Shown: positions 6,874 through 46,681, counted from the first letter of the stretch. The stretch: 64,000 nucleotides of DNA from a virus (IMGVR_UViG_3300049215_000772:64001-128000); one strand, 5' to 3'. Made by a program: numbers and translations. Notes: generated by a model from the sequence alone, not told the origin.

Positions 6874-7143
6874 TTGCAATTCGAGACGGTCGAGTTGCCG
6901 AGAGAGAAAGCGTATCTCTACAGGTATTTCAAGACCAAGATGCAGGAAGCCTTCTTGAAGTACATGCACGTTTTCGGTGATCCAACCCACTTCACCGACC
7001 ACACTGGCTTCCGTTGTACCCCTCGCTGGCTTAAAATACTAGAGAAGCGACTCGCCCGCTTGGAAAAATACCATCGAGAGGCGAAACAGAATTTCGATTT
7101 GGAAATCCTTGCCAAGATCGAAACGGGGAGATTCAAAGTATGA
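6874..7143 (+). CDS. hypothetical protein (start uncertain)
   Basis: fills the gap and overlaps the IDO start (ATGA); possible TTG start. Confidence 0.5.
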   Translation: MQFETVELPREKAYLYRYFKTKMQEAFLKYMHVFGDPTHFTDHTGFRCTPRWLKILEKRLARLEKYHREAKQNFDLEILAKIETGRFKV

Positions 7144-8288
7144 CCTGGAACATCAATGACCGTGGATTCCTTCCTCCACAAGACCCAATTGAAACCATCG
7201 TCACCCAAAATCCCAACTACGCTTCGCTTGAAGCTACACTGGAAAACCTCAGTGTTACCCTTCCTTCGCTTGTCGAAGAACGGCGTGTCCGGGAAGAACT
7301 TGTTGCCCAGCTTCGTAACGTCGCTGGCAAATATGATGAGTTGTGGGCAATCCATAATGGGGATGCCTGGGCCGAGCGGGTGATGTTGCTCTATTCCTAC
7401 TTCGCCAGCGCCTATCTCTACGCCAAACATGAGAACCCAGCCACTCGAATCCCCAAGGAAATCGCTATCCCACTCAACAGTATTGCCAAGCGAGTGGGTC
7501 GTCCTCCGATCCTTTCCTACGCTTCTTATTGTTTGACCAACTGGCGGCGTATTGACCCCAACAAACCCATCGAACTCGGCAACATCGAACTCCTTCAGAA
7601 CTTCTCGCAGGAAGCGAAGCGAGATGAGGATTGGTTCATCCTTGTTCATGTTGACATCGAGGCCAAAGCCGCTGATGCCGTCAACGCCATTGACCATTCC
7701 AAGTACATCTTTACCGAAGATGGGTTCGATAACTTTTCTCTCTACCGGATGTTCGAGCGCATCATCAAAAGCCTTCAAGGAATGAATGCCACCCTCGCCC
7801 GTATGCCGGAACAATGCAGCCCGGATGTTTACTACAGGTTGGTTCGTCCCTATATCTTCGGCTTCAAAGGCGTGGAATATGAGGGAGTCGGCAATCTGAC
7901 CCTCCGGGGCGAAACCGGCGCTCAGTCCAGCATCGTACCCATGCTTCTGATCGCCCTGGGGATCAAACATAAGGAATCCCTGCTGACTGTCCACCTGGAC
8001 GACATGCGCAACTACATGCCCCCGAAACACCGTGCGTTTCTCGAAAATCTCGCCGAACGTATGACGAATAACTCTTTGAGGGAGGCCGTGCTGAACAAGG
8101 TTCCAGGCTACCGTGAGGCGTACAACGAGTGCGTGAACCAGTTAATGATCTTCCGATCCATGCACTTTGAGTACGCCGTGAACTACATAGCCAAGAAGGT
8201 GGACAACCCGGAAGGCACGGGTGGAACGCCGTATATTCCTTGGCTGCAACAACTTAAAGACGAAACCTGGGCGCATCTGCTTCCTTGA
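7140..8288 (+). CDS. indoleamine 2,3-dioxygenase family heme protein
   Basis: GFLP, GRPPILSYASYCLTNW, DEDWFILVH, VRPYIFG, GETGAQSS, DMRNYMPPKHRAFL, FRSMH (heme His), GTGGT. Confidence 0.92.
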   Translation: MTWNINDRGFLPPQDPIETIVTQNPNYASLEATLENLSVTLPSLVEERRVREELVAQLRNVAGKYDELWAIHNGDAWAERVMLLYSYFASAYLYAKHENPATRIPKEIAIPLNSIAKRVGRPPILSYASYCLTNWRRIDPNKPIELGNIELLQNFSQEAKRDEDWFILVHVDIEAKAADAVNAIDHSKYIFTEDGFDNFSLYRMFERIIKSLQGMNATLARMPEQCSPDVYYRLVRPYIFGFKGVEYEGVGNLTLRGETGAQSSIVPMLLIALGIKHKESLLTVHLDDMRNYMPPKHRAFLENLAERMTNNSLREAVLNKVPGYREAYNECVNQLMIFRSMHFEYAVNYIAKKVDNPEGTGGTPYIPWLQQLKDETWAHLLP

Positions 8289-13317: not shown

Positions 13318-13355
13318 AGAGGGGAGTTGTCAGATGGCAACTCCCCTCTCTTTTT
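13318..13355 (+). terminator. rho-independent terminator
   Basis: AGAGGGGAGTTG-N8-CAACTCCCCTCT-C-TTTTT. Confidence 0.85.
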
Positions 13356-15020: not shown

Positions 15021-16247
15021 ATGACATGCCACAACCTACATTGCTCGTACACTCCTCCCCACGGCTGCCACGAGTGCCCGCCGCCCGGAGTTTGTCCAGA
15101 CTTCACCATCCGTCGTCACGACACCAAACCAGCCTTCAAGGTACATATTGAAGATTGCGATGGTCCGTTCAATATGGATGGGCTAGTGCTGGAAGCGTCT
15201 ATGTGGGCCAGGGGCAGATTGAAGAAGGGTATACAGGCCACGGATAATTTTTTTGCACTCGCTGACAATATCGGGTTTGAGCAGATAATGGTTGGTGATA
15301 TAATAGTCGTGGACCGTCCTCGACTACCCGAACAAATGCTTGTGATCGGTTTTGATGAAGACAACTACCTGGTCGAAGTTCAACGAGGGTATCATGGGAC
15401 TACTCCGCAGTGTTGGAAGAAAGGAACCCATGTACGAATAATCAAGTTCATGGGAGCTACAGCGCAAACCGAGATGGTTTTTCAGGACGTGATTCAGATT
15501 GACGGAACAACTAGAAACGAACTGACCAACAGTTTCCTTGTTTACGAGTGGGGGCCAACAGACACATGCCTGGCGGGTTGCTACTTCTTGGAGTTTAAGT
15601 TGCTCAAGATGATTGATGTGCCGGCCCCAACGCCGCCGCCATCGACTTGTCCGTTCCCCAAAATCATTGGGAATCCTGGCCCACCGCAGCCTTATTGTGC
15701 CTATGGCCCACATCCGGGTGGAACAGTTTTCGGTCCAGCCGGACCTTATGTTCGTGATGGAGAAAGTTACTCCGCAGGGGCTTATGGAATTCCTGGAACT
15801 GATACCCCACCCGTGCCACCAATCCCGATGTCACGGGAAGAAAGGCGTGACGATGAAGTGTTGGAAGATGAATACCGTTACAACCCGGAAGCATTTCCTG
15901 GTCGTGATGGGTCTTTGGATGAGCAGCGAGTCGTGATTCCGCCGCAAACCGGAGGTAATTCGCCTGTGGCTCCGTTGTACCCGGAACCATTGAGTATTGA
16001 CGCAGGAGCGAATCCACAATACTACAATCCGGGAGGCGTGGAACAATTCTACATGCCGCATCTGCCGACAGATGTTCCAAGTTTCACGTCGCCTAGCTGT
16101 ATTACACCAAGTTTTACCAGTCCATCACTCACACCAACGGACTTTGGTTGTGGTCTTGGAGCGGGAGTCGAATGGGTGCGTCGATTCCCGGTGGATGGTG
16201 AAGGATTTTTGATCCATATCACCGACAGCCCAACAGCAGAGTTATAA
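15021..16247 (+). CDS. BppU-like baseplate/tail Ig domain protein with Pro-rich insertion
   Basis: FTIRRHDTKP, YEWGPTDT..G.Y..EFK, RFPVDGEGFLIHI; also a QRGYHGTT tail-type motif. Confidence 0.6.
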   Translation: MTCHNLHCSYTPPHGCHECPPPGVCPDFTIRRHDTKPAFKVHIEDCDGPFNMDGLVLEASMWARGRLKKGIQATDNFFALADNIGFEQIMVGDIIVVDRPRLPEQMLVIGFDEDNYLVEVQRGYHGTTPQCWKKGTHVRIIKFMGATAQTEMVFQDVIQIDGTTRNELTNSFLVYEWGPTDTCLAGCYFLEFKLLKMIDVPAPTPPPSTCPFPKIIGNPGPPQPYCAYGPHPGGTVFGPAGPYVRDGESYSAGAYGIPGTDTPPVPPIPMSREERRDDEVLEDEYRYNPEAFPGRDGSLDEQRVVIPPQTGGNSPVAPLYPEPLSIDAGANPQYYNPGGVEQFYMPHLPTDVPSFTSPSCITPSFTSPSLTPTDFGCGLGAGVEWVRRFPVDGEGFLIHITDSPTAEL

Positions 16248-16259
16248 GGAGATGATGCC

Positions 16260-17891
16260 ATGCCGTCCGTAGCTGATTTTCTTATCGAACGTCTCGAAAA
16301 CACCGGAGTAAAACACATCTTCGGTGTGCCAGGCGACTATGTTCTAAACTTCATCAAGCGATTGGGTGACAGCAAAAAGATCAAGTTTGTCAACACGACA
16401 GATGAGAATCATGCCGGTTTTGCTGCCGATGCCTATGCCAGAGTCAACGGCATTGGCTGCGTTGCAACAACTTATAACGTCGGCACTTTGAAAGTATGCA
16501 ATTCGGTAGCAGGGGCATACGCTGAAAGGTCGCCGATGATCGTCCTATCCGGCTCTCCCGGATTGAAGGAACGAAACGAAGATTTCATGCTTCATCACGT
16601 TGTCAAAAGTTTCGACAACCAGTTGAAGATGTTCAAACATATCACCTGCTACAGTGTCATTCTGGAAGACCCCACCAAAGCCGGATTCCTGATCGACGAG
16701 GCGTTGGAGGCGCTGAAGTTTCACAAGCAGCCAATCTACATCGAGTTGCCTCGTGACGTGGCTGAAATGCCCATCCGGTATGATGTGTACCGCCAAGGCA
16801 CTCCACATGCTCGTGAAAGTGATGGCCAGAACCTCAAGGAAGCCTTGGGTGAGGTTTGCGAGTGGATTACAAATGCTTCCAATCCTGTCATTGTGGCAGG
16901 CGTTCAGCTTGCCAGAATGAACCTGGGTGGGCAACTGGTGCGGTGGGCCGAGCGACACAACATCCCAATGGTGACTACGTTGTTGAGCAAATCAACAGTC
17001 AACGAATACCACCCATTGTTTGCTGGTGTTTACAGTGGCCCGCAAACATCAGAAGACGCTGTTCGCAAATTGGTTGATGATTCGGACTGCTTGCTAATCC
17101 TGGGTGAGATGTTGACGGATATGATGCTGGGTTTTCAGTCGCCCAAATTCACCAAGCGTCAGACTGTGTTCTGCTCGATTGAGGGATTGAAGGTCCGCAA
17201 CCACGCATACAATGATGTATTGTTCACCGACTTCTGCGCTGAATTGTTCAGGGTGAACTTGCCGAAGAAGGCAGAACCGGCCCTTCCGCCAAAGAAGATG
17301 ATGGAAGGGTTCGTGCCGCAGAAGGACAAGAAGATGACGACTCAGCGATTCTTCGAGAAGGTCAACTCGATGTTGAACGAGAAGATTGCTGTGGTCGCCG
17401 ATATTGGTGAAGTTTTGTTCGGGGCTTCCTCGTTGGTAGTTTCCCATCATCATTTCATCAGCCCGGCCTTCTATTGCAGCATGGGTCTTGCGATCCCTGG
17501 TGCTTTGGGAGTGGGCCTGGCAAAACCGGAACTGCGTCCGGTCGTGCTGGTGGGCGATGGTGCCTTCCAGATGTCCGTGAGTGAACTCAGCAGTCACTTG
17601 GAAAACAAGTTGAATACCATCGTGTTCGTGCTGAATAACAAGGGCTACACTACCGAACGGTTCCTGCTCGACGGAAAGTTCAACAATATCCGCAACTGGA
17701 ACTACCATGCTGTTCCCCATTTGTTGGGCGGCGGGACGGGTTACTTTGTGGAGACGGAGGAACAACTGGAGGCGGCTGTGGCGGCTGCTTTGAAGAGCAA
17801 AGAATTGGCAATCGTCAACGTGTCTGTCGATCCGACCGACATTTCAACAGCTTTAAGGAGAATGGTCGAAAATCTCTCTAAGAGAGTTTAA
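16260..17891 (+). CDS. TPP-dependent 2-keto-acid decarboxylase (indolepyruvate/pyruvate decarboxylase family)
   Basis: IFGVPGDY, DENHAGFAADAYAR, GDGAFQM...NNKGYTTER. Confidence 0.92.
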   Translation: MPSVADFLIERLENTGVKHIFGVPGDYVLNFIKRLGDSKKIKFVNTTDENHAGFAADAYARVNGIGCVATTYNVGTLKVCNSVAGAYAERSPMIVLSGSPGLKERNEDFMLHHVVKSFDNQLKMFKHITCYSVILEDPTKAGFLIDEALEALKFHKQPIYIELPRDVAEMPIRYDVYRQGTPHARESDGQNLKEALGEVCEWITNASNPVIVAGVQLARMNLGGQLVRWAERHNIPMVTTLLSKSTVNEYHPLFAGVYSGPQTSEDAVRKLVDDSDCLLILGEMLTDMMLGFQSPKFTKRQTVFCSIEGLKVRNHAYNDVLFTDFCAELFRVNLPKKAEPALPPKKMMEGFVPQKDKKMTTQRFFEKVNSMLNEKIAVVADIGEVLFGASSLVVSHHHFISPAFYCSMGLAIPGALGVGLAKPELRPVVLVGDGAFQMSVSELSSHLENKLNTIVFVLNNKGYTTERFLLDGKFNNIRNWNYHAVPHLLGGGTGYFVETEEQLEAAVAAALKSKELAIVNVSVDPTDISTALRRMVENLSKRV

Positions 17892-17900
17892 CCAAAAATC

Positions 17901-18464
17901 ATGTACACCCAACGATATGACAAGGACAAGCGTTTCGGCAACAAGAAGAATGAGTACCCAATCAGGGTCAATTTCGGGATTAGAGTGCCAACGGTCAGGG
18001 TGGTACAAGAAGGAAAACAACTAGGAATAATGTCCACGGATCAGGCCAGGAAAATTGCCCAGGAAGCGGGCCTCGACTTGGTTGAGATCGTGCCGAATGC
18101 CCAACCGCCTGTGTGCGAGATCAAGGACTTCGGTAAGTGGAAGTTTGAGGAAAAAATCAAGCAAAAAGAGAGCGCCCGCAAGCAGCGTGAGTCTCAGGTA
18201 CAGTTGAAGGAAATTCGTCTTCGTCCTGGCATTGCTATGCACGATGTCGAAACGAAGGTGAACCAAGCGAAAGGATTTATCGCAGAAGGGAAGAACGTGC
18301 AGTTCAACCTTCAGTTCAAGGGACATCGTGAAATGTCTCACAAGGAACAAGGGTTCGCAGTCATCAACAAGATCGTCGCCGATCTAGCCGGGGTTTGTGC
18401 TGTCGAGAAAGCTCCCAAGATGGAGGGCAATCGAATCACATGCCGTTTAACCCCGAAGGGATAA
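17901..18464 (+). CDS. infC: translation initiation factor IF-3
   Basis: VRVV..G.QLGIM...AR.IAQEAGLDLVEIVPNAQPPVCEIKDFGKWKFE, KEIRLRP.I..HD..TK. Confidence 0.95.
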   Translation: MYTQRYDKDKRFGNKKNEYPIRVNFGIRVPTVRVVQEGKQLGIMSTDQARKIAQEAGLDLVEIVPNAQPPVCEIKDFGKWKFEEKIKQKESARKQRESQVQLKEIRLRPGIAMHDVETKVNQAKGFIAEGKNVQFNLQFKGHREMSHKEQGFAVINKIVADLAGVCAVEKAPKMEGNRITCRLTPKG

Positions 18465-19753
18465 TGGAAATAATCATGGCTGACGAGGCTTATTTCCGCA
18501 AAGTAGTTGAACTCCAAACAGAGTTCTTCAAGCGGTTGGAAACTCGTGACTCTCAACCAAGGGCCATGCCGCCCTCGTTGCTCGTTCGTTTGTTGGAATG
18601 CGATGACGAAATAATCGACTTGTCGCTCGGCAACATCGGACGGCGATTGAAAGGTTTTGCTGAGGAAGTGGATTTTACGCACCCTGATCTCTACACCATC
18701 TTCGATGGCGCATTGGTTGACGGGGCTGATTTCTCACAGGACTGCTTGGAATTGCTGTCGCTGGCCGAATTCGCCCGCAGCAAGCAACTGGTCCGCATCA
18801 TGCCGATGCTTGGCAAAATCATTACCAGGGAGTCGCTGGGCCGTAACGTCGTCCGCCGCATCGACAGCCCAGCCAGTGTCCGTATGCACGTTCGTTTGTT
18901 GAAAGACCCTGACGAGCGTGAAGAAATCCGTTCCACCAAGAAGATGCAGGTGATTGACCTGACATCCATCTACAAGAAGGGTGAGGACGCCTGGCGTGCC
19001 CAGCCTGACAACTTCCGCAGGTTCCTGCGTTTCGACACAGCCTACCAGGATGAGATCGCCAGGGCTGAGAAGAAGGCCACACGCTACAACGCCCTGGGCT
19101 GTTCGGCGCTGGCTGAAGAAATCATGAAAAGCGTGGAAGCCTTCCGTGAACACATGGACCAGGCTTACTATGGATTCAATCGCATTACTATGACCAATGC
19201 TGCCGTGGTGTTGGCGAAGTCCCTTGGCTACATCTACAACCCGCCCCCAGCCGGTGCGTTGTTCGCCAAAGATGAGCAGGCCGGCAAGATCGTGGTTTCC
19301 AGGAAGTTCTTCGGAAACTACAACTTCGACCCGGCCCACAACCCCATTGAGTATTCACCCATTGTCAGTGAGTCGGCTGGCACTCCTGTCTTCACCCAGC
19401 GGTATGCCCTGCCATTCCTATACGAACCTCGTGTATATCCATTACATCAGTTTTGGGATATTGCTCCTGAAGGTGTCCTGAAAACAGTTAGAACGCTGGA
19501 ATGCTTCCCGGATGCTGATGACAAGCCGATCTTCGATCACTTCGGCTTGATCGTGCCTAGCATCGGTTTCCCACCAGCGTCGAGTGAAGAAACTTACTCG
19601 TTTATCGACGATAAGGGGTTGTGTCGAACCTTCTCTCAGCGTGAGTCTGCGATGAAGGAACTGGACACCATCTTGATTCGCAATGGCCATTTCCATCCCA
19701 TTATCGTCGGAGAGAAAGATGGAAAGTGCTATTTTATTTCTTATTGGGTTTGA
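18464..19753 (+). CDS. hypothetical phage protein
   Basis: start moved to ATG 18464; C-terminal FDHFGLIVP...HPIIVGE....YFISYW. Confidence 0.75.
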   Translation: MEIIMADEAYFRKVVELQTEFFKRLETRDSQPRAMPPSLLVRLLECDDEIIDLSLGNIGRRLKGFAEEVDFTHPDLYTIFDGALVDGADFSQDCLELLSLAEFARSKQLVRIMPMLGKIITRESLGRNVVRRIDSPASVRMHVRLLKDPDEREEIRSTKKMQVIDLTSIYKKGEDAWRAQPDNFRRFLRFDTAYQDEIARAEKKATRYNALGCSALAEEIMKSVEAFREHMDQAYYGFNRITMTNAAVVLAKSLGYIYNPPPAGALFAKDEQAGKIVVSRKFFGNYNFDPAHNPIEYSPIVSESAGTPVFTQRYALPFLYEPRVYPLHQFWDIAPEGVLKTVRTLECFPDADDKPIFDHFGLIVPSIGFPPASSEETYSFIDDKGLCRTFSQRESAMKELDTILIRNGHFHPIIVGEKDGKCYFISYWV

Positions 19754-19787
19754 GTTCCCCGTTTTACAAGAACTCAGAAAGTAACAT

Positions 19788-20024
19788 ATGTCTACACATC
19801 GTATGTCTGATACGCAACCGCTTCATAGTATGAAGTTGGATAAATATACCCTTCGAGTTGAGCATAATGATCTTGGTATCACCATTGTTGATGAGAAGGG
19901 GAATACAGTATGTTGGCTCAACTGTATTGGCACTGCTGTATTGAAGGAATGGTTGAAGGATTTTGATCCGAAGGGACGCATGGCTAATCATCAATCGGTG
20001 AAAGAACATTTGGAGGAACAGTAA
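19788..20024 (+). CDS. hypothetical protein
   Basis: short ORF abutting the IscA start. Confidence 0.6.
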   Translation: MSTHRMSDTQPLHSMKLDKYTLRVEHNDLGITIVDEKGNTVCWLNCIGTAVLKEWLKDFDPKGRMANHQSVKEHLEEQ

Positions 20025-20362
20025 TGGCTTGTGTAATTTTGTCTGAGAAAGCTGTGAAGGAAATCAAGCGCCTGATGGCAGATCAGGACATGAAGCCTGA
20101 CAGCACCTATGTTCGGGCTGGCGTGCGTGGAGGCGGGTGTTCCGGCTTCCAGTACAGCTTCAATCTCGATGAAAACGTGGACGAAAACAAGGATGTAATC
20201 GAGGAGCAAGATGGTCTGAAGATCGTCGTGGACAAGCGCTCGATGATGTACATTCAGGGCACCATGATTGACTACCACGACCAGCTTGAGAAGCGAGGTT
20301 TCAGTTTCAACAATCCGAACGCTTCTGGTAAGTGTGGTTGTGGGAGTAGCTTCAACGTATGA
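20024..20362 (+). CDS. iscA: A-type Fe-S carrier (IscA/ErpA/HesB family)
   Basis: GGGCSGFQY and NPNASGKCGCGSSF. Confidence 0.95.
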   Translation: MACVILSEKAVKEIKRLMADQDMKPDSTYVRAGVRGGGCSGFQYSFNLDENVDENKDVIEEQDGLKIVVDKRSMMYIQGTMIDYHDQLEKRGFSFNNPNASGKCGCGSSFNV

Positions 20363-20682
20363 AGAAAAACTACCATGAAGTGAACTTGAAGGATTTGGGA
20401 GAATCACTTGCAGAGATTAACGAAAGTCTCTACAAGATGTATATCCAAATCGCTATGTTCGCCGGGCATAAGATATTGGGGCTGATATGCGGCCCGGAAA
20501 CGGCAAAGATATTGGTCAATCTACCTGGCGATCAGAAGCAATTACAAGAACTCGAATTTTACAAGATGGGCTACAATGGTATTACGCCTATTTATGTTGA
20601 TATGAGTCTTGGAGCAGGTGACATACTCGTAGTTTGCAAAACTGCAATCGAAAAAATTAGGGTGAAAGATTTGCATGGATAA
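20359..20682 (+). CDS. hypothetical protein
   Basis: overlapping start and stop with neighbours. Confidence 0.65.
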   Translation: MKKNYHEVNLKDLGESLAEINESLYKMYIQIAMFAGHKILGLICGPETAKILVNLPGDQKQLQELEFYKMGYNGITPIYVDMSLGAGDILVVCKTAIEKIRVKDLHG

Positions 20683-20881
20683 GTACGAAGTAAGAGCCAT
20701 TTGTTTTTTCATTTTTACCTGGATGTTGGTTGTTTGGGTTTTTTGCGATGTTGTTGCCTTGAAAAAGAAGGTGAAGGCATTGGAGCAAGATGTTCTGGTT
20801 ATAAAACAGTCTCCGCTTGTTCCAATCACGGAAGAAGAATTCCTGAAAATGCAAAAGGAAATGAAGGAACGGCGCAAGTGA
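20675..20881 (+). CDS. small membrane protein with coiled coil
   Basis: hydrophobic ICFFIFTWMLVVWVF. Confidence 0.6.
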   Translation: MDKYEVRAICFFIFTWMLVVWVFCDVVALKKKVKALEQDVLVIKQSPLVPITEEEFLKMQKEMKERRK

Positions 20882-20927
20882 ATCCAATTGTCCAGTTTGA
20901 CGGCTCCTTGCCTATTTGGGGCAGAAA

Positions 20928-21221
20928 ATGAAACCTGGTCCTCCTGCACTACACAAAGTCAGCGTTCGCCGGGCGTTGATGTACATCGAAAAAAAGTTGC
21001 GGGAAACTTTCAGGATAATGCTCGTCGAAGGCAAATCTGTGAAGTGGATGGAGGAACAAGTAGACCTGGAATTGTTTTGGATGAATGAACGTGGTGCCTT
21101 CTGGAACTACGAAGTGGCGCTGGGCGAGTATTCTTCGCTGGTGGCGATTCAACCACTCCCGTTCCAGGACTGGATATACATTGAACTTGAAAGGAAGAAT
21201 GAATGTCATACGTTGGAATGA
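20928..21221 (+). CDS. hypothetical protein
   Basis: about 97-aa ORF overlapping the ALDH start. Confidence 0.55.
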   Translation: MKPGPPALHKVSVRRALMYIEKKLRETFRIMLVEGKSVKWMEEQVDLELFWMNERGAFWNYEVALGEYSSLVAIQPLPFQDWIYIELERKNECHTLE

Positions 21222-22705
21222 ATTTCATCAACGGCAAGTTTTGCCACGCCCGCAGTGATTTCGTCAGCATTAACCCATCGACCGAAGAAGTAATCGGCGA
21301 TTTCCCCAAATCTAAACCCCATGAGTCCAACGAGGCCGTGGAAGCTGCACGGGCGGCGTTCCCTGGCTGGAGCGCCATGAGCCGCCTTCAGCGTGGCGAG
21401 TTCTTCGACCGGCTTTGTCAAATTCTGAAGGGGAAGCTGGGCGAGATTGCTTCGGCCATCTCGTTGGAAACCGGCAAGAATTTGAACGAGAGTCATGCCG
21501 AGGTCGTAGAAGCCCTGCACATGGCACAGTATTGCTTTGGCAAGGCTCGTGAGGCCACGGGGGAGGTTGTGGCTTCGGAGTTGCCAGAACGTGATTCCTA
21601 CGTCATCAGGAAGCCGAAGGGTGTTGTATTGTCTATCGCCCCTTGGAATTTCCCGTTCGCCATCGGTGGGTTCTGGACGGCAGGCCCAGCGTTGCTTGAG
21701 GGAAATACCGTCATCCTGAAACCTTCAGAAGACACGCCGATGGTCGGCCAGATCATCGCCGAGTTGTTCCAGGAGGCCGGCTTCCCTGTTGGCGTTTTCA
21801 ATCTGGTCCACGGCGACGGCATGACCGGCTCCTACCTTGCCGGCCACAAAGATATTGACCACATCTGTTTCACTGGCTCGGCGGAAGTTGGCCAGTACAT
21901 CCGAAAGACTTGCGCTGATTCCTGGCATAAAACCTGTAGCTGTGAGATGGGCAGCAAGTCTGCTGTCATGGTGTTCGAGGACGCCGACATGAACCTGGCC
22001 CTGGCAGCAACCATCGCCAGTGCTTTCAAGTTGTCCGGGCAGCGTTGTGTGAGTGCCGGAAGGTTGTTGATTGAGAGGCCCATCTTCGATTATTTCTGCA
22101 AGCAGTTCGTGGAGATGGCATCCAAGATCAAGGTTGGCGATCCTTTCAAGGATCGGGATGTCATGTTTGGACCACTCATCAACGGCCAACAGTTGGATCG
22201 GGTGATGTACTACAATCATCAGACATTGGGTATTTTCGCTCACGATACCCAGGTGTTGCTCAGGGGTGAAAGGATGGATCGGCGGGGCTACTATCTCACT
22301 CCGCATGTTTACAGCACGGAATGGAGTTTCGACGAAGGCAGGATGGATTTTGACTATTTGAAACCCTATTTGAAAAATGAAGTTTTCGGCCCGCATGTTG
22401 CGCTGATTCCTTTCGACAGTCTCGAACATGCGATTGCTATATACAATGACACCGACTACGGATTGAGTCTTGGCGTCATCACCAACGACTTCAAGAAGGC
22501 ACGGGAAGTTCGCAACAAGGCGGATTTTGGCCTGGGCTACTGGAACGGTGGGTCCATAGCAGCAGAAAGTCATTTGCCTTTTGGTGGCCTGAAAAAATCA
22601 GGTAATGGTTGGCCGTCTGCTGCCGGAACTTTTGATGCGGTATCACATAAAGTCGCATGGACAGTAAATCATGGAAATCTGTCGTTCCCACAGGGGTTGA
22701 AATGA
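21203..22705 (+). CDS. NAD(P)-dependent aldehyde dehydrogenase
   Basis: PWNFP, GNTVILKPSE, FTGS, CEMGSK (Glu), GQRC (Cys), EVFGP. Confidence 0.95.
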   Translation: MSYVGMNFINGKFCHARSDFVSINPSTEEVIGDFPKSKPHESNEAVEAARAAFPGWSAMSRLQRGEFFDRLCQILKGKLGEIASAISLETGKNLNESHAEVVEALHMAQYCFGKAREATGEVVASELPERDSYVIRKPKGVVLSIAPWNFPFAIGGFWTAGPALLEGNTVILKPSEDTPMVGQIIAELFQEAGFPVGVFNLVHGDGMTGSYLAGHKDIDHICFTGSAEVGQYIRKTCADSWHKTCSCEMGSKSAVMVFEDADMNLALAATIASAFKLSGQRCVSAGRLLIERPIFDYFCKQFVEMASKIKVGDPFKDRDVMFGPLINGQQLDRVMYYNHQTLGIFAHDTQVLLRGERMDRRGYYLTPHVYSTEWSFDEGRMDFDYLKPYLKNEVFGPHVALIPFDSLEHAIAIYNDTDYGLSLGVITNDFKKAREVRNKADFGLGYWNGGSIAAESHLPFGGLKKSGNGWPSAAGTFDAVSHKVAWTVNHGNLSFPQGLK

Positions 22706-23571
22706 AACTAGGAGTTGTTGGGCTAGGAATAGTTGGAAACGCCTTCTACGAGGGCATGAAGGATCATTTTGAGATTGTTCGCTATGACAAGTTCAACAAG
22801 GAACGCTCCGACGTGCCCGACATCCCTTGTCTGTGTTCAGAAGTAGATGGGCCAATCTTTGTCTGCGTGCCGACACCCATGAACGCAGATGGCACCTGCA
22901 ATGTGGATATTGTTGACAGTGTGCTGGAAGAAATTTTCAAGTCTGACTTCGAGCGGGCCAGTACCTTGTGTTGTGGCTACGCACCAAGGATCGTGGTGAT
23001 TAAATCCACGATCCCGCCAGGAACAACCAGGCAGTTTGGATTCAGTTCCAAATACAGCCTGAAGTTGGTTTTCAACCCGGAATTTTTGACCGAGGCCAAC
23101 CCTGTTGCAGACTTCAAGAACCAGGATCGGATTATCCTGGGTGGTGATCCTGATGCCACAAGCATTGTTGAAGATGTGTATGATGTCGCTTATCCGAGTG
23201 TGATGAAGGTTAGATGTAATCCGACCGCTGCGGAAATGGTGAAATATGTGGCGAACTGTTTCTTAGCGATGAAGGTTTCTTTCGCCAACGAGATTTACCA
23301 GATATGTTCGGCGCTGGGTATTGACTATAATACGGTGATAAATACCGCCACGTTGGACAAAAGGCTGGGTAGCTCTCACTGGAAGGTTCCTGGCCCTGAT
23401 GGGCACTACGGTTTTGGTCTTACTTGTTTTCCGAAAGATTTGAATGCTTTGATTCGTGTCGCCGAAAACATGGAGGTTGATCCGAAGGTGATGAAGGCTG
23501 TTTGGGAGAAGAATCTTGAAGTAAGGCCCGAAAGGGATTGGGAACAAATGAAAGGGAGAGCCGTCCTTTAA
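22702..23571 (+). CDS. UDP-glucose/GDP-mannose dehydrogenase family
   Basis: GLGIVG, CVPTP, KSTIPPG, NPEFL, AEMVKY..N, GFGLTCFPKD. Confidence 0.9.
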   Translation: MKLGVVGLGIVGNAFYEGMKDHFEIVRYDKFNKERSDVPDIPCLCSEVDGPIFVCVPTPMNADGTCNVDIVDSVLEEIFKSDFERASTLCCGYAPRIVVIKSTIPPGTTRQFGFSSKYSLKLVFNPEFLTEANPVADFKNQDRIILGGDPDATSIVEDVYDVAYPSVMKVRCNPTAAEMVKYVANCFLAMKVSFANEIYQICSALGIDYNTVINTATLDKRLGSSHWKVPGPDGHYGFGLTCFPKDLNALIRVAENMEVDPKVMKAVWEKNLEVRPERDWEQMKGRAVL

Positions 23572-24525: not shown

Positions 24526-25608
24526 ATGGCTAGAGACTATTATGAGGTCTTAGGCGTAGCCCGAACTGCGACAGAAGAAGAGATCAAGAAAGCATACCGA
24601 CAACTTGCAAGGCAGCACCACCCGGACAGGAATCCGGGCGACAAGGAAGCCGAAACAAGGTTCAAAGAGGTCCAGGAAGCCTACGATACGCTAAGTGACA
24701 AAGAAAAAAAGTCTTTGTACGATTTGCGTGGGCATTCTGGTCCCTCAATGCGATTCAGACGAAAACCAAAACCAGGGTCAGCGCCCAACCCTGGGTTTTC
24801 GTATGAAGATGTTGTTTCCGAGATGTTCGGCGGCAGTGTTTTTCGTGGTCGGAACATTCAAGTTCGAGTTGAAGTTGAACTTCTCGAAGTCCTTACCGGC
24901 TGTACCAAAACCATCAAGATTAAGAAACGCAAGCGTTGCATGACTTGTTCAGGCAACGGCTTCACGGGATTCACACCTTGTTCGGTCTGCGCAGGCTCAG
25001 GCGTCAAGTTGATCCAAGATGCTCCGTTTGATCTTCAGATGGCTTGTCCGGTCTGCCAGGGCAGTGGCAAGGCTGATGTGACTCGTTGCGGAGATTGTCT
25101 AGGCAGTGGGTTTACGCCTATGACAGACAAGATGCTCAACGTGCAGATTCCAGCCGGTATAGGCAATGGCATGGCCGTCCGTATCCGTGGCGAGGGGGAA
25201 GAAGCACAGAAAACGGGAACGCCTGGCGATGTGATGGTGGTCGTGCTGGTGAAGGAACACCCGATTTTCAGGGTTGAGGGGCCGAATTTGGCTGTCGATA
25301 TTCCAGTATCGTACACACAAGTAGCCCTTGGTGGGAAGATTGACATCCCAACTTTGGCTGAAGGCAAGGTAGAAGTAGACATTCCAGCGGGTGCGCAGTC
25401 GAATACAAGATTCCGGCTCAAAGGCCGTGGTTTGCCGACGCCAGCGGGAGTGATGGGTGATCTGGTAGCAACTGTAAAGGTGGAGACACCAAAGGCTTTA
25501 GACGAGGAGTACAAGAAGGTTCTGGAGCAATTGGCGGAACTTGAGAAGAAGGTTGTCACGCCGAGTCGTGAGGCGTGGAACAAAAAAGTCGGCGAAGCAA
25601 CTAAATAG
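24526..25608 (+). CDS. dnaJ: DnaJ chaperone
   Basis: J domain with HPD, four CxxCxGxG repeats, C-terminal domain. Confidence 0.95.
25601..25607 (+). promoter_or_regulatory. putative late promoter box CTAAATA
   Basis: inside the palindrome CAACTAAATAGTTG upstream of ORF 25646. Confidence 0.45.
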
Positions 25609-25900: not shown

Positions 25901-26248
25901 TCAAGCCATCATGCACTTGGTAATGATCGACGGGTAGTCACTGTGATCGTCGTCTCGCCGCTGGAAGACGACGATCATATTTTTTCCCCTTTCTGGTTTC
26001 CCTTCAATTCTTCTGTATTCGTCATGCGTAAGGAATAGCTTCGTTCCATCCGACAATCCGATGTAAATCGGATTTTTTTTGTCAAGAATATGTTCGATGC
26101 GGGCGGTTTTGCGCACTGTGGGTAGGCCCAGGTCAATCTTGGGCAGCATGGAGGCGATGTCTTTGGTCCAGTGTTCCGGGACCATGATAGCTCCGTGCTT
26201 CTCGACGTACTCGCTCAGTGATATGAAGTCTGCGAAATTCGTTTCCAT
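25901..26248 (-). CDS. hypothetical protein, METNFADFISLSE N-terminus
   Basis: CTAAATA box at 26265-26271 on the minus strand. Confidence 0.7.
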   Translation of the reverse strand: METNFADFISLSEYVEKHGAIMVPEHWTKDIASMLPKIDLGLPTVRKTARIEHILDKKNPIYIGLSDGTKLFLTHDEYRRIEGKPERGKNMIVVFQRRDDDHSDYPSIITKCMMA

Positions 26249-45267: not shown

Positions 45268-45960
45268 ATGCAAATCGTCGTGAACAAACAGCCGATGGAA
45301 CTGGAAGCAGGACGGCGTTTTACCTGCATCGTCCACCAACAAGGCATCCGTGTTGACATTCCCGAAGCCGTCGAGATCAACGGTCGAAATACCATCGACT
45401 GTATGGAGAAGATGAGTCAGCGGGCGTGGGAACATATCAGCACGGGCCAGTTGTTTCGGATGTTGTTCACGACGGTTTTCCCGCCTGAAGACTACAATGA
45501 TCGCCCCCATGACCCGGATGATGAGTTTCCGCCCCCGGAGCCACAATACGTTGATATTGAGGTTCCCGACGAAGAAGGTAAGACCAAAACGGAACGCATC
45601 GGCATCGGCATGAGGCCGGGCGTCCCCATCCCGGCCACGATTGAGGAATTGAACAGCGGCGATTTCGGCGTCATTCATGTTTCCGGCATGATCGTCCTGG
45701 GTTGTGAGGCCATCTTCGCCGGCAAGACAAAGATTTTCTTCCGCACCCCGGAAGATCATCTTCACCCAAAGGCAGAACGTCGCATCGTCGGCATGTTCAG
45801 GCAGATGATGATTCTGGCTGGCGCTGCTGGCACAATCACAGAAGAAGCACCGAGGGTTGCCGACGCCGCTACGGGCATTACACAATACTTGCCGGAAGAT
45901 GTTCCACCCGCACCAGAACCGCCCAAGAAGAGAAGAAGGAAGAAGAAAGATGATTCTTGA
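45268..45960 (+). CDS. hypothetical protein
   Basis: 230-aa ORF, basic C-terminus. Confidence 0.7.
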   Translation: MQIVVNKQPMELEAGRRFTCIVHQQGIRVDIPEAVEINGRNTIDCMEKMSQRAWEHISTGQLFRMLFTTVFPPEDYNDRPHDPDDEFPPPEPQYVDIEVPDEEGKTKTERIGIGMRPGVPIPATIEELNSGDFGVIHVSGMIVLGCEAIFAGKTKIFFRTPEDHLHPKAERRIVGMFRQMMILAGAAGTITEEAPRVADAATGITQYLPEDVPPAPEPPKKRRRKKKDDS

Positions 45961-46681
45961 TCGTGTTGCCATCACCGGCGCTGACGAAAGCATCGACCCG
46001 AAACAGTTGTTGGATTTGACCGCCGACTTCCCCTTCGTGGAGTGGGCTATCTTGCTTTCCAGGTCGTCGGAAGGCAAGCGTCCTCGTTACCCTGGTCGGA
46101 AGTGGATGGACAAGTTGCTTCGGGTTGCTGACGAGAACAAAAACCTTCGCTGGGCCGGGCATCTGTGTGGAAGCTGGGTTCGGGAGTGGGTGTATCACGG
46201 TGAGATGACGTTCGAGGCTGAACGCCCGGACTACTTGCCAATCTTCTCCCGGCTGCAAATCAACTTCCACGGAGCCGAATACCATCAGCCCCACAAGGAC
46301 TACTGGCGCTGGTTGCAGGAAAACAAGCTGATCCAGTACATCCTTCAGATGGATGGCGTGAATGACGCCATGCTTCCGTGGGCACTGGAGAAGAAGATCA
46401 ACGCTGTGCCGTTGTTCGACAGAAGCGGCGGCGACGGCATCACGCCGGAAAGCTGGCCGATGCCCTGGCCGAATCTCTACAACGGCTACGCCGGGGGCAT
46501 CGGCCCGGACAATATCCGGGATGAGATCAATCGCATCAGCGGGGCGGTCGGCGGCAATGTCCGCATTTGGATCGACATGGAGAGCAAGGTCCGGGACGAC
46601 CAGGACAAGTTCGATCTCACAAAGGTCCGGGCTTGTCTGGAAGCGGCAAAACAGTTTGGCGCAGCTTTACAAGCCGGCTGA
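45950..46681 (+). CDS. phosphoribosylanthranilate isomerase (TrpF)-like TIM barrel
   Basis: VAITG, QINF, LFDRSGGDG, YAGGIGPDNI, WIDMESKV...FDL.KV. Confidence 0.65.
   Translation: MILDRVAITGADESIDPKQLLDLTADFPFVEWAILLSRSSEGKRPRYPGRKWMDKLLRVADENKNLRWAGHLCGSWVREWVYHGEMTFEAERPDYLPIFSRLQINFHGAEYHQPHKDYWRWLQENKLIQYILQMDGVNDAMLPWALEKKINAVPLFDRSGGDGITPESWPMPWPNLYNGYAGGIGPDNIRDEINRISGAVGGNVRIWIDMESKVRDDQDKFDLTKVRACLEAAKQFGAALQAG

Follow-up and report, generated by a model that had tools for sequence, protein, structure and literature searches.

Do the 2-oxo-acid decarboxylase and the aldehyde dehydrogenase of a moss-associated huge phage belong to one pathway?

A 64,000-nucleotide stretch of viral DNA (IMGVR_UViG_3300049215_000772:64001-128000; hereafter the window), which is part of a huge phage genome of moss microbiome origin, encodes a ThDP-dependent 2-oxo-acid decarboxylase (DC) and, 3.3 kb further on the same strand, an aldehyde dehydrogenase (ALDH). 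To our knowledge, ThDP 2-oxo-acid decarboxylases have not been recognised among phage auxiliary genes, and a literature search retrieved no published description of one in huge phages. The locus raises the question of whether the two enzymes act in succession. A preliminary description of the window had suggested that they do, either in an aromatic amino-acid catabolic route alongside an IDO gene at 7 kb and a TrpF-like gene at 46 kb, or in a bypass of PDH. Its identification of the enzymes was correct: genes of the two expected families are located at 16260 and 21203, and both products keep all of their catalytic residues. The proposed route fared less well.

Gene array and its conservation

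DC and ALDH reside in a co-directional array with terminator-like hairpins at its two ends:

13318..13349, + strand: strong terminator-like hairpin with a 14-bp stem, 5' of the array
15021..16247, + strand: gene directly 5' of DC, 408 aa here versus ~260 aa in relatives, no Pfam family
16260..17891, + strand: DC, 543 aa, PDC/IPDC/KdcA superfamily (Pfam, NCBIfam, PDB)
17901..18464, + strand: translation initiation factor IF3 (IF3_N and IF3_C), next after DC in every related locus
18464..19753, + strand: conserved protein of 429 aa, its own ATG at 18464 overlapping the IF3 stop as TAATG
20024..20362, + strand: IscA-type Fe-S cluster carrier (PF01521, E 4e-19)
21203..22705, + strand: ALDH, 500 aa (PF00171, E 9e-127)
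22702..23571, + strand: truncated UDP-glucose/GDP-mannose-dehydrogenase-like (UGDH-like) gene, 289 aa (Pfam, PHROG, sequence)
24526..25608, + strand: DnaJ (Pfam), closing the conserved co-directional block
26055..26074, + strand: terminator-like hairpin, 3' of the array

Small ORFs, IF3, the 429-aa gene and IscA separate DC from ALDH, and between the two hairpins there is no plus-strand terminator of strength comparable to the first. An AAGGAG ribosome-binding site precedes the ATG of DC by 8 nt. The start of the UGDH-like gene overlaps the ALDH stop (ATGA), and in the window ALDH is predicted to be translationally coupled to this gene, which has the NAD-binding and central domains, GxGxxG and a catalytic-type Cys and is devoid of the C-terminal nucleotide-sugar domain. 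The T4 late-promoter box TATAAATA is absent from the window, and a scan of the window for sigma-70 promoters gave hits at chance level. Moss/plant metatranscriptome contigs from three runs of one study were 100% identical to pieces of DC, IscA, ALDH and the ALDH/UGDH-like junction, albeit at a low depth at which carry-over DNA is possible and gaps in coverage are uninformative.

Neither a megablast search of GenBank phages with the region nor a single-protein scan of IMG/VR returned a match; relatives were subsequently recovered with an alignment-based query. The DC of the window is also present on a 673 kb contig, and 29 related huge-phage loci were retrieved with DC itself as the query. The order tail-like gene, DC, IF3 is fixed in all 29, the 429-aa gene follows in 26, and IscA is frequently placed between this block and ALDH. 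The upstream gene was found by tblastn just 5' of DC in every one of these loci (49–71% identity). The conserved parts of its product are residues 27-200 and ~350-408; the Pro-rich insert between them (~200-350) is unmatched in every related locus, and the protein weakly resembles PHROG tail proteins (E 5e-6 and 2e-5). The 429-aa protein had no informative match in Pfam, NCBIfam, PHROG or the protein atlas.

Identity and probable substrates of the two enzymes

All three ThDP-enzyme domains of DC scored above the Pfam cut-offs (TPP_enzyme_N, PF02776, E 2e-30; M, PF00205, E 3e-21; C, PF02775, E 7e-23). Among solved structures KivD/KdcA were the best matches (E 1e-77), followed by PPDC, IPDC and PDC. 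The catalytic set is intact (cofactor-activating E49, catalytic D26, H112, H113 and E466, and G432-D433-G434 and N460 of the Mg-ThDP motif GDG...NN) and aligns with E49, D26, H112, H113 and E462 of KivD. The best curated NCBIfam model, TIGR03394, matched over the full length with 325.5 bits (cut-off 554.5), TIGR03393 with 292.5 (cut-off 946). Bacterial relatives of DC are also below the IPDC/PPDC cut-offs (381–421 bits); the subfamily that they form with the phage enzymes within the PDC/IPDC/KdcA-like group is uncharacterised.

A pocket signature (M/I/V288, L386, F387, T465, L/I469, M/L535, L539) is common to the phage and bacterial members; pocket residues as such are weak predictors of substrate. 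The positions occupied by Y290/W392/I472/W551 in Zymomonas PDC and by S286/F381/V461/M538 in KdcA (PMC13003428) are M288, L386, T465 and M535 in the phage enzyme. The bulky Tyr290, Trp392 and Trp551 of the Zymomonas-type pyruvate-specific pocket are not present, and with a hydrophobic pocket free of these aromatics a pyruvate-only DC looks unlikely. The substrate would most likely be a medium-sized or large hydrophobic 2-oxo acid of the branched-chain or aryl-pyruvate type. Phosphonate metabolism, with a phosphonopyruvate decarboxylase and a PhnY-like ALDH, was considered and rejected, as the middle domain of DC is complete and the enzyme clusters with KdcA/IPDC; a paper that mentions huge phages screened them for PEP mutase only.

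DC homologues were found in more than 120 clusters at at least 59% identity. In the tree the phage sequences group into one clade (SH-like support 100), with Planctomycetota/Verrucomicrobiota sequences of 43–48% identity around it, a pattern which indicates that DC was captured once by the ancestor of this phage lineage; the host is probably of the Planctomycetota/Verrucomicrobiota type. Inspection of 80 bacterial DC loci revealed no conserved neighbour, so that genomic context is uninformative on the DC substrate. A further set of 'viral' DC loci (L030-L053) was considered as an independent viral acquisition; the idea was dropped, since the loci look like cellular DNA from their neighbours (thiolase, FadB-like protein, PRPP synthetase, pyrophosphatase, DHODH and PanD).

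ALDH is most similar among PDB entries to ALDH1B1-type enzymes (E 3e-74). The catalytic C282, the general base E248, the oxyanion N149 and the NAD motifs G225...G230 (GxxxxG) and E393-F395-G396-P397 (EEIFGP type) are invariant in its family, and the enzyme is probably NAD-preferring. It missed every NCBIfam equivalog cut-off, the top model scoring 321 against 770 bits and StyD (phenylacetaldehyde dehydrogenase) 283 against 850; the best family scores are distributed evenly among a large number of specificities, phenylacetaldehyde dehydrogenase being one of them. A search of three PVC genomes with ALDH gave no match at E <= 1e-80, so the enzyme is not nameable by orthology.

ALDH homologues comprise more than 120 clusters at at least 58% identity, and most members are found on large phage contigs without DC, at least partly T4-like (rIIB-bearing). 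Among 80 viral ALDH loci, DC is nearby in six and absent from 74, a Glyoxalase_4 (VOC/glyoxalase-fold) gene lies directly 5' of ALDH in 51, and a truncated UGDH-like gene adjoins it in 24; downstream there is an arginine-dihydrolase-like gene in 23 and a LAT-family (lysine/ornithine-type) aminotransferase gene in 21. None of the VOC, arginine-dihydrolase-like and aminotransferase partners occurs in the 134 kb searched of this genome. The family has two sides, one from huge phages and one linked to VOC and aminotransferase genes, which have 127 conserved positions in common, R281-C282 among them, and zero fixed differences, suggesting that it is probably isofunctional. Arg281 stands immediately N-terminal to the catalytic Cys282; in ALDH7A1 the Arg at this place, Arg301, forms an ion pair with the carboxylate of the substrate (PMC11362210). 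From this residue and the usual gene partners we infer that the ALDH substrate is an amino-acid-derived semialdehyde with a carboxylate group, or else a reactive aldehyde.

One pathway or two separate genes

On balance, and with a modest degree of confidence, we regard the two as separate auxiliary metabolic genes that share one co-directional array and serve no dedicated pathway. DC would be a catalytically competent enzyme that uses ThDP to turn a hydrophobic 2-oxo acid into an aldehyde and has kept its place next to IF3 since its capture by the clade ancestor, and ALDH would represent a distinct phage gene family with a semialdehyde or reactive aldehyde of its own. In this phage ALDH could also oxidise the DC product, though nothing requires that it does.

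Co-occurrence across related phages, which the preliminary description had named as a check, gave a divided answer. Both genes are present in nine of the ten genomes or contigs of large relatives examined, and roughly one related locus in two has them within the same 5-kb block. However, one complete 572 kb genome has an intact DC and zero PF00171 genes, and in two other relatives ALDH is ~46 and 60 kb away from DC. Loci L018/L019 retain an ALDH of 63% identity, although the DC next to it is catalytically dead, with D26, H112, the GDG motif and the catalytic Glu all gone. Added to these are the 74 viral ALDH loci that have no DC and the bacterial DC loci, only one of which (1/80) has an adjoining ALDH. 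Judged by joint presence and integrity across relatives, DC and ALDH do not behave as a dedicated pair; a functional link between them in this sub-lineage is conceivable.

The strongest alternative, which we nevertheless hold to be unlikely, is a sequential Ehrlich- or auxin-type route: DC would convert host branched-chain or aryl-pyruvates (phenylpyruvate, indolepyruvate) to aldehydes and ALDH would oxidise these to acids, yielding phenylacetate, indole-3-acetate or isobutyrate together with NADH and removing toxic aldehyde. It is favoured by the integrity of the pair within one array without a strong internal terminator, by its joint presence in most large relatives, by the hydrophobic DC pocket and by the fact that the top NCBIfam model for DC is an indolepyruvate/phenylpyruvate decarboxylase. 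Yet the scores for both steps are far from the respective cut-offs (325 versus 554.5 bits for DC, 283 versus 850 for ALDH with StyD), either gene persists where the other is missing or dead, ALDH orthologues mostly occur without DC, and the DC-ALDH association is traceable to one inherited event. Nor did a class I/II (aromatic/aspartate-type) aminotransferase (PF00155) score above the cut-off when this genome's 134 kb and four large relatives, two represented by complete genomes, were searched. A host enzyme could stand in as tryptophan aminotransferase.

The tryptophan context of the preliminary description has also weakened. IDO is genuine (7140-8288; PF01231, E 1e-66), but it is sporadic, being present in two of five large relatives, and it is chemically off-pathway: IDO opens the indole ring and competes with, rather than feeds, the indolepyruvate route. 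The 'TrpF-like' ORF (45857-46681) is sub-threshold, with 17.8 bits for PRAI against a cut-off of 22.7. What stands of the proposed route is a chemically possible two-step conversion of a 2-oxo acid to an acid; an aromatic or tryptophan route, or a dedicated pair, is unsupported by the comparison. That the two enzymes act sequentially on host aryl-pyruvates, so that infected cells release auxin-type acids (phenylacetate or indole-3-acetate) through which the phage could influence the plant on which its bacterial host lives, is very doubtful.

A PDH bypass, in which DC would be a pyruvate decarboxylase and ALDH would oxidise acetaldehyde to acetate with a gain of NAD(P)H, appears improbable. DC does belong to the PDC superfamily with a complete catalytic set, and the solved structures closest to ALDH are of the ALDH1/2 type. 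With the family profile, however, PDCs score 295 bits against 358 for KdcA, and also below IPDC and PPDC. The pocket-narrowing Y290, W392 and W551 of Zymomonas PDC are M, L and M in DC, and the uncoupling of the two genes counts here as well.

Equally improbable is the view that DC is retained mainly for a structural or regulatory role, perhaps tied to IF3, with its chemistry secondary. Three sub-lineages (L018/19, L023/48 and L027/28) keep an ORF of 503–530 aa in the same position (43–53% identity) though the ThDP-binding and catalytic residues are gone, and the DC-IF3 adjacency is universal among related loci. Against this, the DC of the window and 25 of the 28 aligned phage DCs (seven further phage loci were left out of the alignment) keep every catalytic residue and the pocket of the bacterial enzymes, and the dead copies, with their truncated C-termini, may just be decaying.

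Finally, that the region is host DNA carrying ordinary bacterial genes in a mis-called record, as the IMG/VR label (provirus, 27% completeness) and the cell-like IF3, DnaJ, IscA, DC and ALDH might suggest, can be dismissed almost entirely, given that the same gene order recurs in 346–634 kb contigs, in complete viral genomes with terminal repeats (511 and 572 kb) and in a huge phage of 595 kb from GenBank, that the majority of genes flanking DC and ALDH are ORFans, and that bacterial DC loci have no neighbours in common with the region.

Significance and comparison with known systems

Comparison across genomes reveals different evolutionary partners for two enzymes that are near each other and could form a pathway. 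DC is found in all 29 related huge-phage loci recovered, and its pocket is common to the Planctomycetota/Verrucomicrobiota subfamily, so that identification of its substrate would account at once for a host enzyme family and for a conserved part of the metabolism of huge phages. The ALDH cluster of related phages, with VOC-fold, arginine-dihydrolase-like, lysine/ornithine aminotransferase and truncated sugar-dehydrogenase-like genes, is an undescribed candidate amino-acid-catabolic module.

The sole GenBank phage record with both genes is LR756511.1, the 595 kb genome of an uncultured huge phage, in which they lie 5.5 kb apart on one strand (53% identity for DC, 58% for ALDH); the record carries no annotation, and a literature search found no paper on its two genes. 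The indole-3-pyruvate auxin pathway (IpdC and ALDH), the Ehrlich pathway and the yeast PDC/ALDH bypass use the same two enzyme classes, which here are intact and within 3.3 kb. The phage locus differs from them in having no aminotransferase partner in the sequences searched, a pair that is not obligate in relatives and no equivalog-level match for either step.

KdcA and KivD are branched-chain 2-keto-acid decarboxylases. The Lactococcus lactis enzymes (PDB 2vbf, 6vgs, 9msa) are the best solved matches to DC (358 bits with the family profile) and are like it in the three-domain ThDP fold, the Asp/Glu/His-His/Glu set, GDG...NN and the hydrophobic pocket. They are nonetheless distant: specificity positions S286, F381, V461 and F542 are M, L, T and L in the phage enzyme, which falls into a subfamily of its own with its centre in PVC bacteria. 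Where IPDC has the Gln of its 'ADQG' motif, which we take to be the substrate-contacting Gln383, the aligned residue of phage DC is Ile. Azospirillum PPDC (PDB 2nxw, TIGR03394) and Enterobacter IPDC (PDB 1ovm, TIGR03393) are the corresponding curated families, for both of which DC scores far below the equivalog cut-offs.

As for ALDH, an orthologue in related phages is flanked by arginine-dihydrolase-like and LAT-family genes, reminiscent of the cyanobacterial arginine dihydrolase (ArgZ) route; these flanking genes are absent in the searched 134 kb of this genome. PutA/P5CDH and AstD are carboxylate-anchoring semialdehyde dehydrogenases too. Overall, the models for P5CDH, AstD and P6C dehydrogenase match ALDH no better than do those for betaine-aldehyde or 2-hydroxymuconate-semialdehyde dehydrogenases, and all are far below cut-off. 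At the active site ALDH resembles ALDH7A1 (aminoadipate semialdehyde dehydrogenase), which has an Arg directly before the catalytic Cys, as in R281-C282.

The gene array and its phage origin

The window covers bases 64001-128000 of a 134 kb IMG/VR record. The decarboxylase and the aldehyde dehydrogenase (ALDH) are encoded in a packed, co-directional array on the + strand, which comprises, in order, a tail-like gene, the decarboxylase, IF3, a 429-aa ORF, IscA, small ORFs, the ALDH, a truncated UDP-glucose/GDP-mannose-dehydrogenase-like (UGDH-like) gene, two ORFs and DnaJ. Strong terminator-like hairpins flank the array on both sides, and a terminator scan revealed none of comparable strength between them.

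Features of the array (window coordinates)
13318-13349, strong terminator-like hairpin
16260-17891, + strand, ThDP-dependent 2-oxo-acid decarboxylase, 543 aa, all three ThDP-enzyme domains
21203-22705, + strand, ALDH, 500 aa, PF00171 (E 9e-127)
22702-23571, + strand, UGDH-like gene, 289 aa; GxGxxG and catalytic-type Cys kept, C-terminal nucleotide-sugar-binding domain absent
26055-26074, strong terminator-like hairpin

The gene order is repeated in contigs of 346, 462, 602 and 634 kb, in IMG/VR records that include terminal-repeat complete genomes of 511 and 572 kb, and in the huge phage LR756511.1 (GenBank, 595 kb); the decarboxylase of the window was also found on a 673 kb contig. The region is phage DNA. 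Its origin from a host flank is ruled out by the recurrence of the gene order in large phage contigs and complete genomes.

The gene preceding the decarboxylase (15021-16247) contains a Pro/Gly-rich insert of ~150 residues (residues about 200-350) with no match in any of 29 related loci, while its conserved parts bear weak resemblance to phage tail proteins. The stop codon of IF3 overlaps the start codon of the 429-aa ORF (TAATG, 18462-18466), and the TTG listed as the start of this ORF at 18395 is probably not the true one. Three moss/plant metatranscriptome libraries from one study contained, at low depth, contigs 100% identical to parts of the decarboxylase, of IscA, of the ALDH and of the junction between the ALDH and the UGDH-like gene, which is compatible with transcription of the decarboxylase/IscA/ALDH region, although DNA carry-over may also account for them.

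The decarboxylase of huge phages

The assignment of the enzyme to the IpdC/PDC family in the preliminary description is borne out. Among solved structures it is closest to KivD/KdcA, the branched-chain keto-acid decarboxylases of Lactococcus (E 1e-77); phenylpyruvate, indolepyruvate and pyruvate decarboxylases come next, and a profile of the phage family ranks them in the same way (358, 330, 325 and 295 bits, respectively). The catalytic residues D26, E49, H112, H113 and E466 are present, pairing without gaps with D26, E49, H112, H113 and E462 of KivD, as is the GDG...NN Mg-ThDP motif; judged by this set, the enzyme is intact. Specificity is set by four positions, occupied by S286/F381/V461/M538 in KdcA and Y290/W392/I472/W551 in Zymomonas PDC (PMC13003428). 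The corresponding M288/L386/T465/M535 of the phage enzyme provide a hydrophobic pocket without the aromatics that confine PDC to pyruvate and without a basic residue at these positions. The aligned phage and bacterial members have a pocket signature in common. A hydrophobic 2-oxo acid of medium or large size is the predicted substrate.

In metagenomes, homologues at ≥59% identity fall into more than 120 protein clusters, all about 543 aa long, and the block of tail-like gene, decarboxylase and IF3 is invariant in the 29 huge-phage loci (24 distinct once duplicates are dropped). For a huge-phage gene the decarboxylase is unusual, and it is strongly conserved; full-text literature searches turned up neither a keto-acid decarboxylase nor an ALDH of the window type described in huge or jumbo phages. 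The nearest cellular homologues (43–48% identity) belong overwhelmingly to Planctomycetota and Verrucomicrobiota; Nitrospira and Nitrososphaera contribute some. Kolteria novifilia (L076) is one planctomycete with an orthologue. Since the phage sequences group together in one clade (SH-like support 100) amid the Planctomycetota/Verrucomicrobiota-type sequences, with no clear sister group, the tree points to a single ancient capture and vertical descent thereafter. The phage enzyme (325 bits) and its bacterial homologues (381–421 bits) score too low for TIGR03394 (indolepyruvate/phenylpyruvate decarboxylase; cut-off 554.5 bits), the curated family nearest to them, and therefore represent an uncharacterised subfamily. 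Across 80 bacterial loci the homologues have no conserved neighbour, and an ALDH is near in one locus only.

A further group of contigs listed as 'viral' in IMG/VR (L030-L053, e.g. L035:4278-17682) carries a 33–35% identical decarboxylase amid genes of cellular appearance (thiolase, FadB-like protein, lipase, PRPP synthetase, FTR1, pyrophosphatase, DHODH and PanD), and is probably bacterial DNA filed under viral. A planctomycete-type decarboxylase on contig L079, whose label is that of a Klebsiella pneumoniae MAG, probably reflects a binning error.

Not all phage copies have remained active-looking. In L018 (10001-11545) and its duplicate L019 the homologue lacks D26, H112 and the GDG motif, and a 12-residue deletion takes out the catalytic Glu as well; similarly dead copies occur in two further lineages, L023 (duplicate L048) and L027 (duplicate L028). 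All three lineages lack the Asp, one His, the GDG motif and the catalytic Glu, and their C-termini are shortened; the frames remain open at the conserved position 5' of IF3. Either these genes are decaying or their products are pseudoenzymes that serve a different role.

The proposed decarboxylase–ALDH pathway

It had been proposed that the decarboxylase and the ALDH, alongside IDO and a TrpF-like gene, might constitute an aromatic amino-acid (auxin/phenylacetate) or PDH-bypass route. Both ORFs are confirmed, as is IDO (7140-8288), so the underlying observation holds apart from its TrpF element: ORF 45857-46681 matches phosphoribosylanthranilate isomerase at 17.8 bits, below the cut-off of 22.7. 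This ORF is flanked by a polynucleotide kinase/phosphatase-like gene and an NAD-dependent DNA ligase. The pathway's ties to IDO and to TrpF have no support. Ring opening of indole by IDO would make this enzyme a rival to an indolepyruvate route rather than its feeder; furthermore, IDO occurs in only two of five large relatives, and the complete genome G001, the near-complete G003 and LR756511.1 lack it. Neither the 134 kb record nor four large relatives yielded a class I/II aminotransferase, and the class III aminotransferases of the complete genomes G001 and G002 lie far from the ALDH, or the ALDH is absent.

The two enzymes do not always occur together in relatives. An ALDH lies within 10 kb of the decarboxylase in about half of the 29 loci, but the distance is about 46 kb in G002 and about 60 kb in G003, and the 572 kb G001, whose decarboxylase is intact, has no ALDH-family gene. 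Conversely, a reciprocal scan from the ALDH yielded 80 viral loci, of which just six have a decarboxylase nearby, and in L018/L019 the ALDH (63% identity) is kept beside the dead homologue. Judged from these genomes, the ALDH is not an obligate partner of the decarboxylase. Both enzymes are intact members of well-known superfamilies and a pathway joining them is possible, but it is without support as a dedicated unit.

The ALDH and its partners in other phages

The ALDH was correctly recognised; among solved structures, ALDH1B1/ALDH2-type enzymes match it best. C282, E248, N149 and the NAD motifs are present and invariant across the aligned family; judged by these residues, the enzyme is intact. 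The Glu of its K-P-S-E motif, which we take to be equivalent to ALDH2 Glu195, suggests a preference for NAD. The ALDH tree divides into a side made up of huge phages (17 rows, support 100) and a side linked to VOC-fold and aminotransferase genes (62 rows), and the decarboxylase–ALDH link therefore goes back to one lineage. Both sides have in common 127 positions with ≥90% conservation, R281 beside the catalytic C282 among them, and no fixed differences separate the two sides; nothing in the sequences points to a change of specificity in huge phages.

Within the window the ALDH is physically tied more closely to the UGDH-like gene than to the decarboxylase: its stop overlaps the UGDH-like start (ATGA, 22702-22705), and the two genes are translationally coupled. 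Because this shortened version also accompanies ALDH orthologues in 24 of the 80 viral loci, the UGDH-like substrate is probably not a nucleotide sugar. Other recurrent partners are a Glyoxalase_4 (VOC-fold) gene directly upstream (51/80), an arginine-dihydrolase-like gene (23/80) and, directly downstream, a lysine/ornithine-type (LAT-family) class III aminotransferase (21/80); rIIB is close by in eight loci. In large phage contigs (L137:9501-14337; also L142-L164, L205, L212 and L219) the ALDH orthologue lies inside a five-gene cluster of VOC/Glyoxalase_4, ALDH, arginine-dihydrolase-like (ArgZ N-domain type), LAT-family aminotransferase and truncated UGDH-like genes. We found no published description of this cluster, a candidate catabolic module leading from arginine/ornithine (or lysine) to glutamate-type products.

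The VOC neighbour suggests a reactive aldehyde such as methylglyoxal as an alternative ALDH substrate. A carboxylate-bearing, amino-acid-derived semialdehyde is favoured by the neighbours in other phages and by the Arg before the catalytic Cys, the residue that in ALDH7A1 forms an ion pair with the substrate carboxylate (PMC11362210).
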